Source: Nitrospirota bacterium (GTDB lineage Bacteria > Nitrospirota > UBA9217). From it: a stretch of 64,000 nucleotides of DNA. The translations under genes and the position numbers were made by a program. Of the stretch, positions 9,395 to 28,095 are shown one piece after another; the first letter of the stretch is position 1, and each line of letters starts with the position of its first letter. The notes under the pieces are model-generated. The model did not search any database. It saw only the letters and a list, made by a program, of their open reading frames with translations, and was not told the origin of the DNA. The stretch covers positions 32,001 through 96,000 of the forward strand of contig CAVWHO010000013.1 in assembly GCA_963754875.1 (NCBI GenBank), given 5' to 3'.

Positions 9395-11116
9395 CTACCA
9401 GCTTTGCAAGCCGTGACATCCGGTAAGCCCGCCGGCGCTCGGGTTGCACGTCGTTCCCGTGAAGTTGACCGCGCTGTTGATTGTGGTCGAGGCCGTAGCT
9501 TCAGAGATCGGGGCGGTCAGCGAGGTGAAGTGCACCGCTGCAAGCATCGTCGTATCATGACAGACGGTACACGCGAGCCCTCTCATATCGCTATTATTGT
9601 GCTGGCCTGAGTAATAGCTGTTGTTCTCCGGAATGCCCGGGCCGGTACCCAGAACGTGGCATGCCGTACACTGAGTGTTGACGTTGATCGTGCCGGTCTG
9701 CCAGTCAGGCGTTGTCAGGCTGCCGTGGCAGCTCACATTGGAACAGGCCATCGTAGATGCGTTGTACGTTGCTGCTCCGGCTTTCGCATTGAACGTCGGG
9801 TCGAGGATCACGTCTACGACTCCGTTCTGGTGAAGCGTGGTGCCGGAGCCGGCCCCTAAATGGCAGGTTGAGCACGCTACCGTGTTGAGGCTCATATGAG
9901 GTGCATGGTTGCCGGCAACGTTCGGGAACACGGTGCCCGACGGCGGAATCCCGTGACAGGTCCCGCAGGTCGGTGTCGCGTGGCAGAGCGTGCTGTTGAA
10001 GCAGCCGGGAGCGGTCCCTGCTGCAGCCGGCGGCGACGGCGGTGCAATCGGCGAGTTCGCGCCGTTCGTATGGCAAAGCGCGCAGACCGAGGCATTGCCG
10101 GTGTCAGTGGTGGTGTGGGTATAGGAACCCGTTATCCATGAAGTTGGGTGCGGCCCGCTTCCCCCGTGACAGGTGAAGCAAGACGTCTGTGCGGCACCAC
10201 CTGAAAAATCAGAGCCGTGGCAGGTTTCGCACAGTGCGAATCCGCCTGTCGACGTGGGTGCCGATTTTGCGGCAACGCCATGCTGCGTCGGATCGGACCA
10301 TCCTGCCGGGTGCCCAACTTGTGCATGACAGAGGGTGCTGTTGAAGCAGCCCGGAGCGGTCCCTGCTGCAGCCGGCGGCGACGGCGGCGCAATCGGCGAA
10401 TTGGCGCCGTTCGTATGGCAAAGCGCGCAGACCGAGGCATTGCCGGTGTCAGTGGTGGTGTGGGTATAGGGACCCGTTATCCATGAAGTTGGGTGCGGCC
10501 CGCTCCCCCCGTGGCAGGTGAAGCAAGACGTTTGTGCGGCACCACCTGAGAAATCAGAGCCGTGGCAGGTTTGGCATAGCGCGAATCCGCCTGTCGATGT
10601 CGGTGCTGCTTTGGCAGAAACGCCATGCTGCGACGGATCGGACCATCCTGCCGGGTGCCCAACTTGTGCATGACAGAGGGTGCTGTTGAAGCAGCCCGGA
10701 GCGGTCCCTGCTGCAGCCGGCAGCGACGGCGGCGCAATCGGCGAATTGGCGCCGTTCGTATGACAAAGCGCGCAGACCGAGGCATTGCCGGTGTCAGTGG
10801 TGGTGTGGGTATAGGAACCTGTTATCCATGAAGTTGGGTGCGGTGCACTCCCACCATGGCAGGACTTGCATGCTACAGCCGAGATGCCACCGGAAAAATC
10901 ATCAGCGTGGCACTCCTGGCAAACTGCAAAGCCATTGGCTTGCGTTTTCGCCGCTGCACCGTGGACAGCCGGCGAGGACCAACCCGCTGTATGCTGACCG
11001 GTATCAGGATTAAATGACGATAACGCTTGTTTATTTGATGAACTACATCCAATGAAGAGTGCGACTGCGCAAAACAGACCCAATACCAGGACCACCCGTT
11101 CCATTTTCTTTCTCAT
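9395..11116 (-). CDS. Multiheme c-type cytochrome lipoprotein: 13 CxxCH plus 5 atypical CxnCH motifs
   Basis: Lipobox FIGC; 13 CxxCH, 3x CFNSTLCH, CSNVSCH and CNPSAGGLTGCH. Start taken at MRKKMERV. Confidence 0.9.
   Translation of the reverse strand: MRKKMERVVLVLGLFCAVALFIGCSSSNKQALSSFNPDTGQHTAGWSSPAVHGAAAKTQANGFAVCQECHADDFSGGISAVACKSCHGGSAPHPTSWITGSYTHTTTDTGNASVCALCHTNGANSPIAPPSLPAAAGTAPGCFNSTLCHAQVGHPAGWSDPSQHGVSAKAAPTSTGGFALCQTCHGSDFSGGAAQTSCFTCHGGSGPHPTSWITGPYTHTTTDTGNASVCALCHTNGANSPIAPPSPPAAAGTAPGCFNSTLCHAQVGHPAGWSDPTQHGVAAKSAPTSTGGFALCETCHGSDFSGGAAQTSCFTCHGGSGPHPTSWITGSYTHTTTDTGNASVCALCHTNGANSPIAPPSPPAAAGTAPGCFNSTLCHATPTCGTCHGIPPSGTVFPNVAGNHAPHMSLNTVACSTCHLGAGSGTTLHQNGVVDVILDPTFNAKAGAATYNASTMACSNVSCHGSLTTPDWQTGTINVNTQCTACHVLGTGPGIPENNSYYSGQHNNSDMRGLACTVCHDTTMLAAVHFTSLTAPISEATASTTINSAVNFTGTTCNPSAGGLTGCHGLQSW
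9979..10995 (-). repeat. About 3 tandem intragenic repeats of 345 bp (115 aa; one 4-heme module each)
   Basis: Near-identical blocks offset by 345 bp (for example 10132 vs 10477). Confidence 0.9.
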
Positions 11117-11534
11117 TGAGCACTTCCCCCGTGTTGTTAAAGTAGTACTAAAGTAAAGACAATATTTGTCCCGATTTCCCGTCATGCTAACGCGGCATAA
11201 TCGCGCCTGTCAACGTCTAATTATAATTTTATTGTGCATGCAGTATGCAATCATGTTTTTCAACATGCAGAGTAATAATTTGACGAGAGAGACGGTGCCC
11301 TCAGCTTTGCAGCCATAAAAAGACGGAGCTCGTTATGTTTCACAGCTGTCAGCTCACAACGTAATGTTGATTTTAACAAGCGTTCCTCAGCCGTCACTCC
11401 ATGCAGATAGCATGATTGCATTGCTTTTCCTGTCATGAAACGTATTCACACAGTCGTCGCACGATCTGCCTCTCAACGACTGAATGTCAGCACTCGTTGT
11501 ACGGCGACTGTCCTTTTAACTTGTCTCAGCCACT

Positions 11535-12060: not shown

Positions 12061-12077
12061 AGCAAGTGATATGCCAA
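12061..12077 (-). promoter_or_regulatory. Sigma-54 (-24/-12) promoter
   Basis: Minus strand TTGGCAT-ATCAC-TTGCT, about 47 nt upstream of the cytochrome start. Confidence 0.75.
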
Positions 12078-23902: not shown

Positions 23903-25582
23903 TCAGGGAAGGGTAGCCAGGAAATTAGCATAATCCTGTGCAGTCGTCCCGGATGCCAACGAGGCCCCCTTGCTGACCATCGAATTGACTGTGGACAGCC
24001 ACGTGGTCGCCGTCCTGCCCGTGACTGTGTATCCGCCTGACTTGAGAACGGTAGTGTTCACAGTGAGACCGTGGCACATAGTGCAGGACGATGTTACCTG
24101 GGCCAGCGTAAGCGTCGGCGTCGGCGGCGTATAGGTGCAGGACTGCGAGAGGAGCGGCGTCCCGGCGCAGCCGGCTGGTGACGATGTCAGGAGGTTCCTT
24201 GTCTGCGTGCTGTTTGACTGGCAAGCACCCCATGCACTATAGGTGTAGGTGCATGCCGGCGGGACATAGGTGCAGGCTTGCGACGTGACCGGCGTTCCCG
24301 TGCAGCCTGCCGGTGTCGTGGTCAGCACGTTTCTGGTTTGCGTGTTGTTCGACTGGCAGGCGCCCCAGACGTCATAGGTGTACGTGCAGGCCCCAGGCGC
24401 AGGCGGTACATAGGTGCAGGCTTGCGACGTGACCGGTGTCCCCGTGCAGCCTGTCGGCGTCGTGGTCAGCACGTTTCTGGTTTGCGTGTTGTTCGACTGG
24501 CAGGCACCCCAGACGTCATAGGTGTACGTGCAGGCCCCAGGCGCAGGCGGCACATAGGTGCAGGACTGTGACACGACGGGTGTACCGGTGCAACCTGACG
24601 GCGATGTCGTCAGCACGTTTCTCGTCTGTGTGTTATCCGACTGGCAGGCGCCCCAAACATCATACGTATAGGTGCAGGCCACGGGCGTTGGAGTGGGCGT
24701 TGGAGTCGACGATAAAGCCGAAGCGATGGCTTGGATCTGGGCGGTCGTGAGCTTGGAGAGGAAGCTCATAGTGCCCACACTTTGAATCGCAGACTGTATC
24801 TGGGCTGCCGTCACACCTAACTTACTGCTTGTGGCAAGAGGTCCGTGGCAGGAACTGCAGTTAGTCACATAGAGTGCTGCCCCATTCACCTGTCCCGGCT
24901 GGGGCATGTTCCCGTTGTAGAAGGTCCCGGAGTTGATGTCATTGATCGGGGCAGTAAAGATCACCGCCCCGGTCTCTTTATTCGTGACGATGATCATGCC
25001 GTTTGATACGGTGATCTTCACGTCGTCGAACATGGCGTCAAGCCCGGTGTGGTCGGCTTCATAATCGTCGTTGACCGGGTCCTTGGTCGTCCCGTACAAG
25101 GAAAAAAGCGGCGTAAGTTTCTGCCGCAGACTGGCTATGGCTGTCGACCGGTGGGATTCTATGGACTCGTATAAAGCCGGGTCCGGATTTGCAGGGAGTG
25201 TTGAGGGGTCCCCATCGATTGCTGCGGCGAAAGCCGCATTTGAGAACGGGTTTATGTTCGCCGTACCCGGCCCTAAGGTAAATGAATACAACTGGTTCGT
25301 GCCGCTGCTGTCCGTCCACGTAACCGTGAGCACAAAGGGCGGTGTAAGCCCGCTTACGTTGATTGAGAACGATCCGTTGGCTGCCGACGTGGTCGTCCTG
25401 ACCCGCGGCGGAACCGACGCATCTGTCAGGGTAACAGTCCCGACTACGGGCGCCCCTGAGGCGGCTACGCCCTTTACCGACTGCGCCGGGCTCGGCGTAA
25501 TGTTGCTGACGCCGCAAGCGGCGAGCAGGACGCTTAATGCTACTGCGCCTGCCATGAGAATAGTGTCCATTTTTTTCTTCAT
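23903..25582 (-). CDS. Diheme cytochrome c lipoprotein with four Cys-rich thrombospondin-type-1-like repeats
   Basis: Lipobox LAAC; CSSCH and CTMCH; PT linkers; 4x CTYTYxxWGACQSxxTQTR...GCxGTP...C. Confidence 0.85.
   Translation of the reverse strand: MKKKMDTILMAGAVALSVLLAACGVSNITPSPAQSVKGVAASGAPVVGTVTLTDASVPPRVRTTTSAANGSFSINVSGLTPPFVLTVTWTDSSGTNQLYSFTLGPGTANINPFSNAAFAAAIDGDPSTLPANPDPALYESIESHRSTAIASLRQKLTPLFSLYGTTKDPVNDDYEADHTGLDAMFDDVKITVSNGMIIVTNKETGAVIFTAPINDINSGTFYNGNMPQPGQVNGAALYVTNCSSCHGPLATSSKLGVTAAQIQSAIQSVGTMSFLSKLTTAQIQAIASALSSTPTPTPTPVACTYTYDVWGACQSDNTQTRNVLTTSPSGCTGTPVVSQSCTYVPPAPGACTYTYDVWGACQSNNTQTRNVLTTTPTGCTGTPVTSQACTYVPPAPGACTYTYDVWGACQSNNTQTRNVLTTTPAGCTGTPVTSQACTYVPPACTYTYSAWGACQSNSTQTRNLLTSSPAGCAGTPLLSQSCTYTPPTPTLTLAQVTSSCTMCHGLTVNTTVLKSGGYTVTGRTATTWLSTVNSMVSKGASLASGTTAQDYANFLATLP
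24131..24676 (-). repeat. Four tandem repeats of about 144 bp (48 aa)
   Basis: Near-identical units are visible in both DNA and protein. Confidence 0.9.
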
Positions 25583-25830
25583 ATTTCCCTCTCTTTTGTA
25601 AATTTGGCTCTTTGAGTCTTTCGGTCAAGGATACTGCTGCTTCTGAATTGCAATCCTTAATTCTACCCGGCTTCGGTAACAAACACTGGAATGCAGCAAT
25701 TCTTGACGCATTCTTTAGTCTGCAGCTCAGAGATAGCGCCTAGGCAGGTGCAAAGAAAAAAATCCCTTCGATTGCTGCTATGGCCTGCATCACCCCCTCC
25801 TGCGCCCTTCTCTGAGAAGTACCAGGAACG

Positions 25831-25877
25831 AAAAAAAGCCGGGCGCCTCATATCGAAAGATATTTCGGCAGCCCGGC
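25831..25877 (-). terminator. Riboswitch expression-platform terminator
   Basis: Minus strand GCCGGGC(T)GCC...GGCGCCCGGC-TTTTTTT, overlapping the aptamer 3' strand. Confidence 0.8.
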
Positions 25878-25943
25878 TGTCTCAAGGAGATCCTGAAGGC
25901 TTTCCGCCCCATCCTCGCGGATGGTTGAGTATTGTCGTCTATC
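25859..25943 (-). promoter_or_regulatory. GEMM-I cyclic dinucleotide riboswitch, GEMM-Ib (cyclic AMP-GMP) type
   Basis: Minus strand GATAGACGACAATACTCAACCATCCGCGAGGATGGGGCGGAAAGCCTTCAGGATCTCCTTGAGACAGCCGGGCTGCCGAAATATC shows a P2 GNRA hairpin, the GGAAAG junction and P3. Confidence 0.9.
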
Positions 25944-26114
25944 TGGTACTATGGAATTCGAGCAGAAAAAAATTACGCCATGCGCCTGCAAAAACAAAAT
26001 GCCGGATATTTCACAACTAATGAAGAAATGTCGTCCGTCGCGATTACGCTGATCCCGTGCCGGAAGCATGAAGGTTTGTTTCGCAACTTTGCATCCTCAT
26101 TGGTTGATGTCTAT

Positions 26115-26131
26115 AGCAAATGGAATGCCAG
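26115..26131 (-). promoter_or_regulatory. Sigma-54 (-24/-12) promoter
   Basis: Minus strand CTGGCAT-TCCAT-TTGCT, upstream of the riboswitch. Confidence 0.7.
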
Positions 26132-26886
26132 AAATTGCAAATTTTTGTTATCTTATTGATTTATGAAAACAATCTCGATTTTGTCGGCACGTTTCACCAT
26201 CGCGTGAATTTTGCAAAGTGTCGGGTTTTTCCTACGGTAAAAAATGACGAATAGAAACAGTGATGTCGTTCAAATAATAAAAGCCCTGCAATAATGCTGT
26301 ATTATAGTCAGCCAATTCGTAAAACAGTGCAGAGCTTTTTCGCGCATAGAGAATTGAAAGAGAGCTCTTCCGCGCACAAAGAATTGCGGACGGTTTGATA
26401 GTGCTGCTGTAAAGGTAAAATAAGATACTTTTGGAATCATTTCGTCATTTTTCTCTGCCATATCAGCAGCGATCATTGCGGTCCTGCTGTCCGGTTTACT
26501 CATAACAGGTTCGAATGATGCCGTATACGTTGAACTATTCCCAAATAGTACAAGCAGGCTTAGCTGATAAAGTATCAACGAACTTTTCCCCGTGCTGATC
26601 ATAACGTTTGGCTATAGGAGCTTGTTGACAGGTTCGAGGGGCGGCGATAAAATTTTATCAAGCTTGAAGTCATTGATGAGCTGTGAAAGCTTATTACGAG
26701 GACATGAGCCAGGTCGCTTAAAAAATACTTCCACAGGCGTCGCTCTCGGAGTTCTCGACCAGAGTCATTCTGCACAATAAGCCCAGCGCAAAAGGGCGTG
26801 GAGGCCTTCGGTCCTTTTGTAATTGTGGCTTTACCAAGGAATGCAGATTTGTAAATTGTAGGCATTTGAAAAGGAGGCACCATTCC

Positions 26887-28095
26887 ATGAAGAAATTCGG
26901 TACAGATGTCCTGATACTCGCACTGTCGGCCGCATTTGTTTTCTCCCTGGCGAGTTGCGGCCGCAGTAACAGCAGCACTAGCACTAGCAGTATAACGCCG
27001 GTCAGTACCAACGCTCAGGCTGCGCAAGCGGCCACTGCCAGCGTCAAAACCGCCCGTAACGTTATGGTCATCGGCTCAGCGCTTGCGATGATAACTTCAG
27101 CGGCGACGAGCAGCGGCGTAGGATTGCCCCTTGCGCCGGCCATCAATGCCCCTTCGGGCACGACGAATGCCACAGCATTGGCCAGGTTTTCAACAACGTT
27201 CTCTCCAACCCTCAGGAGGACGATGGACGTTCGGGCTGCTGCATTGACGTTTCCCGTCACGATCGACTGTGCCACGAATACGACAGTAACAGGGGGCAGC
27301 ACAGCGACGCCGGACAGTGTCACGATTGTCGGGAGCGGCATCGGCCCGTTTACCGTAACGTTTAACGCGTGCAGGGAGGGGGTGGCGCAAGTGGACGGCG
27401 TCGTGACCGCGACGCTCACCGGGGTCATCGCTGCCACCTTGACGCTTGGAACAGACACCGCCCCGCTTACCGTGACCGAGTACGCAGGGGCCTCGTCTTC
27501 GTCTGTCATCGACGTTATTAAAACCACGTCGAACATATCGTTCAGTCAGTTGGGTGTGACCGACACGTTTGTGACGACGGGATCGTTCGAGAACTGGGAT
27601 TACGTGGCACATGGACACGAAAAGCAGGTCATGACCAATCTTATAATTGCGGTGACAACTGGGGTCGCAACGGTCGGCGGCGCAAACTATACGGCCGATA
27701 CGTTTACCGTGAACGGCCCTTCGACCGGTACAGTCTACCTGTCGGATACGGACAGTACGATAAACTATACGGAATCGGACAGTTATTCGAATTTTGTGAT
27801 CGTGGATAAATCACCTGCTGCAGGTTCGCCTGATTTCGACTATCTCACCATGACCGGCGTCTTCAGCATCTCCACCACGCCGGCAGACAAGTGTATCGAC
27901 GGCACATTCAGCATCGCAACAAACACTGATGTGAAGATCGACAATGCTACGGAGACGATAGTGGAGGGACAGCTCGCGATCAACGCGGCTGCAGTGGCGG
28001 TATATAATGCCGACGGCAGCCTGACGGTCACCGTGAACGGAGGCACGCCGGCGACGTTTTCGGAAGCGGAATTGGCGGCATTATGCTCATTGTGA
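26887..28095 (+). CDS. Ser/Thr-rich, beta-rich lipoprotein of unknown function
   Basis: SD aaggagg; lipobox LASC. Confidence 0.8.
   Translation: MKKFGTDVLILALSAAFVFSLASCGRSNSSTSTSSITPVSTNAQAAQAATASVKTARNVMVIGSALAMITSAATSSGVGLPLAPAINAPSGTTNATALARFSTTFSPTLRRTMDVRAAALTFPVTIDCATNTTVTGGSTATPDSVTIVGSGIGPFTVTFNACREGVAQVDGVVTATLTGVIAATLTLGTDTAPLTVTEYAGASSSSVIDVIKTTSNISFSQLGVTDTFVTTGSFENWDYVAHGHEKQVMTNLIIAVTTGVATVGGANYTADTFTVNGPSTGTVYLSDTDSTINYTESDSYSNFVIVDKSPAAGSPDFDYLTMTGVFSISTTPADKCIDGTFSIATNTDVKIDNATETIVEGQLAINAAAVAVYNADGSLTVTVNGGTPATFSEAELAALCSL

Follow-up and report, generated by a model that had tools for sequence, protein, structure and literature searches.

The window (the whole stretch of DNA analysed here, 64 kb in length) contains, on its minus strand, a gene for a lipoprotein cytochrome c of 559 amino acids (23903-25582), which is preceded by a long leader. 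In the order of transcription, the region upstream of this gene comprises a sigma-54 (-24/-12) promoter-like site (26115-26131), with a predicted transcription start near 26104; a GEMM-I aptamer of the Geobacter GEMM-Ib type (25859-25943); an intrinsic terminator (25831-25877); and a Shine-Dalgarno-like purine run (25788-25801), which lies past the terminator and before an ORF of 16 codons (25740-25790). A divergent gene, 26866-28095 (+), encodes a Thr/Ser-rich lipoprotein of 409 amino acids that has no Pfam or NCBIfam match, and a near-perfect sigma-70 site (26625-26653) lies ahead of it. An earlier interpretation of this DNA, made without database searches (the sequence-only reading), had proposed that a riboswitch for 3′,3′-cGAMP controls a surface cytochrome at this site; the first base of stem P1 (25943) and the end of a tract of seven U (25831) are the bounds which it gave.

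The leader RNA and its promoter

The Rfam family RF01051 (c-di-GMP-I, GEMM-I) matches positions 25864-25940 (-) with 37.5 bits (gathering score, 35) and is the sole Rfam family matched in the window. The aptamer comprises stem P1 with an internal loop, P2 with a GCGA tetraloop, and P3. In an alignment of 27 copies of the switch, the pairing of the aptamer is kept in 97.9% of cells (slid controls, 36-52%); the three-stem fold rests on the Rfam model, because covariation of the aptamer pairs in this alignment is not above that of shuffles (246 of 500 reach it). In the register used, bases 21-22 (CU) pair with bases 45-46 (GG) and A47 comes next, the J1/2 sequence is ACAAUA, and A occupies position 20; G20 and C92 are numbered as for Vc2 in PMC6140456. 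A20 (25930 (-)) is the base by which GEMM-Ib switches are described as recognising the adenine of cGAMP (PMC6140456, PMC6456294), and C92 (25868 (-)), described as pairing with the guanine of the ligand (PMC6140456), is paired inside the terminator in the OFF fold. C92 is retained, as are A47 (25903), C44 (25906) and G83 (25877). We take A47 and the C44-G83 pair to have their GEMM-I roles. At the closing position of upper P3 (25879-25891 (-)), most Geobacter-type copies have G-C, but the copy in the window has an A.C mismatch (25891 with 25879); A is present at this site in 20 of the 28 copies from the family of the host, versus 6 of 131 metagenome copies among the matches listed. The sequence-only reading had named a GEMM-I aptamer with A at the specificity position, to be checked by a search with the Rfam c-di-GMP-I model and by inspection of position 20: the match lies above the gathering score, and the base is A.

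The terminator has a stem spanning 25877-25838 and seven U at 25837-25831, and it excludes the aptamer fold: its 5′ arm is the 3′ strand of the aptamer, C92 and P1 included. Folded without constraints, the RNA is predicted to form the terminator (-57.5 kcal/mol, z -5.29, with none of 200 shuffles equally stable). For a stretch of 120 nt, the free fold has -50.0 kcal/mol versus -29.5 kcal/mol with the aptamer enforced, and by folding the terminator overtakes the aptamer at a transcript length of 105-110 nt. A generic terminator scan has no match here because the stem has bulges. Across the 27 copies, the terminator pairing is kept in 94.0% of cells (slid controls, 15-44%), and three pairs have changed on both sides, which 2 of 500 shuffles reach, a figure that is inflated by relatedness. 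A terminator that is mutually exclusive with the ligand-bound aptamer is the geometry predicted for a transcriptional ON switch, and the same architecture has been described for the ON switch of pilM in G. metallireducens (PMC9262584). The overlap of the 3′ strand of the aptamer with a terminator, which had also been pointed out from the letters of the sequence, is upheld both by the folds and by the conserved pairing.

About 30 nt past the terminator, a Shine-Dalgarno-like run is present in 15 of the 22 copies that are last in their leader, and a start codon comes next in only 5 of these 15. The run may bind ribosomes and so stabilise or couple the long leader. The ORF of 16 codons was considered as a conserved leader peptide and rejected, as most copies have no start codon.

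The sigma-54 pattern has two matches in the window, where 0.06 would be expected, and the host genome encodes RpoN and 22 ORFs with a GAFTGA motif. Of the 28 family copies, 9 have a similar sigma-54-like site no more than 500 nt upstream. Control by sigma-54 had been part of the proposal of the sequence-only reading, and the predicted site at 26115-26131 (-) agrees with it. The second match, 12061-12077 (-), precedes an ORF that has 13 CxxCH motifs (9398-11209 (-)) by about 850 nt, and its surroundings are similar to the promoter of the switch locus.

The cytochrome gene and the spread of its switch

The cytochrome has a lipobox cysteine (Cys23) and two CxxCH motifs. It begins with a haem-less domain, which is followed by a monohaem domain with His/Met ligation (CxxCH at residues 242-246), a short PT linker, and a C-terminal part with four Cys-rich repeats and the second CxxCH (residues 500-504). 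Residues 31-227 match the solved chains PDB 9I0D (E 1e-46) and 9I0E (E 9e-45), and the first haem domain matches 8QJ6 (E 7e-14) and 8QJG (E 2e-10); all four are named 'Lipoprotein cytochrome c'. According to PMC11520253, 8QJ6 and 8QJG represent haem domains I and II from PgcA, a protein with a haem-less first domain. We infer that 9I0D and 9I0E are this haem-less first domain; a search of the literature found no paper naming 9I0D. A structure prediction of the cytochrome from its single sequence had a mean pLDDT of 44 and was set aside. In G. sulfurreducens, pgcA is reported to be needed for the reduction of Fe(III) oxides and to be driven by a cGAMP switch (PMC5732950, PMC6456294), and the number of haems is given as 1 to 6 across PgcA homologues (PMC5732950).

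The Nitrospirota protein shares with PgcA (GSU1761) the lipoprotein signal, the haem-less first domain, the His/Met monohaem domain, the PT linker and a leader with a switch of the cGAMP type. However, GSU1761 is an extracellular trihaem lipocytochrome with 29 PTx repeats, whereas the Nitrospirota protein has two CxxCH and, instead of long (PT)x tethers, a short PT run and four Cys-rich repeats; its C-terminal haem domain has no match to the solved PgcA domains. Thus, the matches to solved chains turn the surface cytochrome of the sequence-only reading into a homologue of PgcA. A second gene with the PgcA first domain, without a haem domain match, is located elsewhere in the host genome (G000:C2:80241-80834 (-), equivalent to L128); it has no riboswitch upstream and is preceded by a sigma-54-like site. 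One relative (G033; contigs C9, C19, C21, C32 and C43) carries the pgcA-type switch in six copies, and its PgcA-type monohaem domains (38 matches) stand in long arrays of up to about ten per ORF.

The distribution of the switch was determined with a pattern of 24 bases, one mismatch allowed, in 401 Nitrospirota genomes. There are 28 sites, in 16 of the 64 genomes of the family of the host (7 genera), and none in the 337 other Nitrospirota; the reversed control pattern has no site in the 401 genomes. With the one mismatch allowed, position 20 is A in all 28 copies. One copy at the end of a contig was dropped, leaving 27 for analysis of context and for alignment. A PgcA-like gene lies at most 1.4 kb downstream in 23 of these 27 (the copy in the window included), and 5 of the 28 come first in a tandem pair. 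A match to a PgcA domain is present in 15 of the 16 switch-bearing genomes versus 8 of the 48 others, an association for which a Fisher test is descriptive only, because the genomes are kin and the features are physically linked. The patchy spread, restricted to the family, suggests that the switch moved together with its gene.

In metagenomes, the same pattern is found in at least 125 stretches. Exact look-ups of adjacent proteins, two of ten of which had a taxon, assign locus L188 to Geobacter sp. and locus L235 to G. benzoatilyticus. The aptamer of the window is identical to the three aptamers of these loci at 77, 78 and 76 of 89 bases (85-88%), a comparison which covers these copies, with the assayed Gs1761 and Gm0970 outside it. 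The closeness to Geobacter switches, put forward in the sequence-only reading, can now be expressed as 76-78 of 89 bases relative to three copies assigned by the names of adjacent proteins. No aptamer match was found in plasmid and phage records. A search with the protein encoded downstream of the switch found three genome loci, all of them titled 'Nitrospirota bacterium'. The named homologues of the cytochrome include Nitrospirae GWC2_56_14 and GWD2_57_9, which presumably belong to the GTDB family UBA9217. The PPDK encoded in the window is 94% identical to the product of a gene that shares a contig with the switch in a Nitrospirota genome (L012), and the contig is therefore regarded as native. 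The suggestion of a lineage other than Geobacter, whose novelty would have gone with an assignment to Geobacteraceae, is in agreement with this placement in Nitrospirota.

The Geobacter GEMM-Ib switches (Gs1761/GSUR3008 before pgcA, and Gm0970 of pilM) have in common with the Nitrospirota switch the RF01051 fold, A20, C92, a terminator that takes the 3′ strand of the aptamer, frequent tandem copies and a target of the pgcA family. The Nitrospirota switch differs in belonging to another phylum, in being mostly confined to pgcA-like genes, in the A.C mismatch of P3, in having C at position 23 (19 of 28 copies) and in its long leader with a sigma-54 site. The host genome has one copy of the pgcA-type subtype, whereas 17 GEMM-I switches are given for G. 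sulfurreducens in PMC8835794.

Candidate enzymes for synthesis and removal of cGAMP

The host genome has 28 GGDEF matches, most of which have Asp at the specificity site; two have the Ser of Hypr enzymes. The canonical GacA type (Ser/Thr348 with GGDE[F/Y]) was not found among these 28, and each of the 16 hits that the canonical pattern had in the 64 family genomes proved spurious. With a loose DNA pattern for the Hypr serine, the controls had counts no lower than the test. A degenerate REC-GGDEF protein (G000:C5:95250) was considered as a GacA candidate and rejected, as it has no catalytic motif. For the Hypr GGDEF enzyme that the sequence-only reading called for, the genome thus has two candidates, a Ser/GGDDF and a Ser/GGEEF gene, both frameshifted in the host assembly; a canonical Ser/GGDEF GacA was not found.

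The first Ser cyclase (G000:C21) has two transmembrane (TM) helices, a HAMP domain, GGDDF and the Hypr-site Ser, and neither EAL nor HD-GYP. Proteins of this TM-HAMP-GGDDF(Ser) kind are found in 55 of the 64 family genomes versus 41 of 337 other Nitrospirota, and Ser with GGDDF is kept in all 25 loci that could be parsed (of 30). The cross-dimer residue is Gly, which is outside the residues that PMC6456294 lists. The layout and motifs are those of GSU1937, the second cGAMP synthase of G. sulfurreducens (TM helices, HAMP, GGDDF, Ser348), and the likeness is one of layout and motif; distant relatives of the Nitrospirota protein have Ser, Asn or Asp at the Hypr site, and the wider clade Ser or Asn. 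Its nearest atlas clusters are mostly Thermodesulfobacteriota; of 20 representatives from the GGDDF clade, 1 had a taxon (Deltaproteobacteria). GSU1937 is reported to account for part of the cGAMP, its share being largest under Fe(III) citrate, and a GSU1937 fusion in E. coli is reported to make c-di-GMP too (PMC8835794). Three of the 16 switch-bearing genomes (97%, 83% and 74% complete) have no Ser/GGDDF match; among those of their GGDEF matches that could be parsed (16 of 18, 20 of 28 and 17 of 21), Ser occurs with GGEEF alone.

The second Ser cyclase, a GAF-GGEEF protein (G000:C16:84193-85065 (-), equivalent to L009:5194-6066), adjoins clpB. It is present in 62 of the 64 family genomes, with GGEEF in all 30 loci, and its best solved match is GacA (6D9M, E 1e-33, 120 bits versus 104 for the next). 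With GacA (GSU1658/Gmet_1914) it shares Ser348 and the cross-dimer Tyr; it differs in having GGEEF instead of GGDEF and a GAF instead of a receiver domain. In the account of PMC6456294, a Ser/GGEEF mutant of GacA is inactive, natural enzymes with Ser or Thr have exclusively GGDE[F/Y], and the Ser/GGEEF combination is absent from a sequence set of 2014. By its sequence, the GAF-Ser/GGEEF protein would be a natural exception to this rule.

A candidate for the removal of cGAMP is an HD-GYP protein with the motif RxxQ (G000:C21:233605-234783), which is found in 50 of the 64 family genomes and keeps RxxQ at 28 of 30 loci. Rxx(Q/N) is described as the mark of cGAMP hydrolysis in HD-GYP proteins (10.1101/600031); in the screen reported there, three of six candidates were selective for cGAMP, two degraded both ligands and one was inactive. 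PmxA, Bd2325 and Gmet_3476 likewise have RxxQ/N in place of Rxx(K/R), but the N-terminal part of the host protein is unlike theirs, and the likeness is one of motif. A second RxxQ HD-GYP match (G000:C18:6391-6768 (-)) has a stop inside the match. The candidates for synthesis and removal are far more widespread than the switch and are therefore weak evidence about this RNA.

The ligand and its alternatives

We hold with moderate confidence, from what the sequence tells, that the GEMM-Ib-type riboswitch in the leader of this pgcA-like gene is a transcriptional ON switch which answers 3′,3′-cGAMP. Transcription by sigma-54 RNA polymerase would begin near 26104, leaving about 160 nt before the aptamer. 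In the ligand-free state, the terminator would capture the 3′ strand of the aptamer (from G83 to P1, C92 included) by pairing, ending transcription at 25831. Binding of cGAMP between A20, A47 and C92 would let the aptamer keep its 3′ strand, and the polymerase would continue over the ~250 nt that are left and enter the cytochrome gene. The locus would then be a gate with two inputs, i.e., initiation driven by an activator, followed by read-through set by a second messenger. The source of cGAMP would most likely be the membrane HAMP-GGDDF(Ser) protein resembling GSU1937, and the RxxQ HD-GYP protein would clear cGAMP. The gene would encode a cytochrome anchored at the cell surface, passing electrons to particles such as Fe(III) oxides.

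Selectivity for cGAMP cannot be read from A20, because A20 switches can be bispecific: Vc2 with the change G20A is reported to bind both ligands (53 and 120 nM), and the preference of Gs1761 for cGAMP to be about threefold by ITC versus about 1200-fold by probing (PMC6140456). The ON switch could instead be bispecific, or c-di-GMP could be its ligand in practice, in a cell which depends mainly on c-di-GMP and which acquired the cassette from a Geobacter-like donor or ancestor; we consider this unlikely, but an alternative to be taken seriously. A20 riboswitches are described as binding c-di-GMP by means of an adenine in protonated form, several natural ones being bispecific (PMC6140456); Asp predominates at the specificity site of the 28 GGDEF matches of the host; and of the seven GEMM-I switches of its genome, four have G20 and three A20. 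Another GEMM-I switch in the family precedes omcS-like genes (6EF8 match, E 1e-95; 24 of the 64 genomes). Of its 14 copies, 8 have G20 and 6 have A20, a toggling that can mean either that the switch was rewired to cGAMP repeatedly or that position 20 tolerates both bases. The absence of a genuine canonical GacA hit from the 64 family genomes, and the three A20-bearing genomes in which no GGDDF match was found, also fit a c-di-GMP reading. However, position 20 is constant in the 28 pgcA-type copies (again with one mismatch allowed), the near-identical Geobacter switches of the pgcA and pilM types are reported as about 1200- and 1600-fold selective for cGAMP by probing (PMC6456294, PMC8835794), and the family-wide Ser cyclases with the RxxQ phosphodiesterase would fit a pool of cGAMP.

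If the synthase genes were truly broken in the host strain, the switch would be an orphan, its sensor intact and its cytochrome gene mostly off. This appears highly improbable. It would account for the one extra base that each of the two Ser cyclase genes has in the host assembly, for the patchy presence of the subtype (16 of 64 genomes) and for the fact that a SMODS-family nucleotidyltransferase, an alternative source of cGAMP, was not found in the host genome, which is 90% complete. But each extra base is absent from contigs of four out of four runs of close strains, and the genes have no other decay. Further, 22 of 120 orthologous ORFs (~18%) are split by frameshifts in the host assembly, and broken genes in this genome are therefore treated as likely assembly errors; both extra bases are probably such errors, though two given genes would be hit by chance in only ~3% of cases. 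The promoter, the switch and the gene, in turn, are intact in the host and its relatives. The identity of 85-88% to Geobacter aptamers and an estimated contamination of 4.5% could also indicate mis-binned DNA, i.e., that the contig or the cassette belongs to Geobacterales and the switch is an ordinary Geobacter one. This is hardly credible and has been largely refuted by the PPDK, with its 94% identity to a gene on a switch-bearing contig of a Nitrospirota genome, and by the presence of the subtype in 16 genomes of seven genera of the family, with the P3 variant that is typical of the family.

A switch answering cGAMP could also be part of a wider system, in which this Nitrospirota family runs cGAMP without GacA. 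The GAF-Ser/GGEEF protein would be either an active synthase or a dedicated receptor, breaking the rule that Ser/GGEEF cannot bind substrate; it would supply the signal even where the GGDDF enzyme is lacking; and cGAMP would switch cells to mineral respiration via PgcA while c-di-GMP drives the OmcS-like nanowire genes. Taken together, this scheme is doubtful, and we give it a small chance. The Goldilocks model of GGDEF catalysis has a natural test case in the conserved Ser/GGEEF protein.

The switch, the terminator, the cytochrome and the candidate enzymes are all of known kinds. No report of a cGAMP-switch system in Nitrospirota was found in the literature searched, a scope to which the supplementary distribution lists of the founding papers do not belong; one review that recurred there names Nitrospira solely in connection with wastewater. 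If the reading of a cGAMP-responsive ON switch is true, cGAMP signalling extends to another phylum. Riboswitches for cGAMP have been studied mainly in Geobacter, where the respiration of Fe(III) oxides is under their control; the same type of switch and gene, together with candidates for synthesis and removal of the messenger and with OmcS-like genes, suggests that mineral reduction is under the same second-messenger logic in this uncultured Nitrospirota family. The material for the bench can be obtained free of culture: one RNA of 115 nt and three enzyme domains.

Among the other GEMM-I switches of the host genome, one with G20 precedes two tandem genes for OmcS-like hexahaem cytochromes (G000:C8:407478-410295 (-), equivalent to L002, L409 and L436), near ORFs with 26 and 16 CxxCH motifs; homologues of OmcE have been reported in Nitrospirota (PMC13712944). 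The other two A20 switches (G000:C7:149889-150021 (-) and G000:C16:341041-341121 (-)) have different junctions and a different P3, and both overlap terminator-like stems. The C7-type A20 switch is located near PgcA-like genes in L116 and L121 too.
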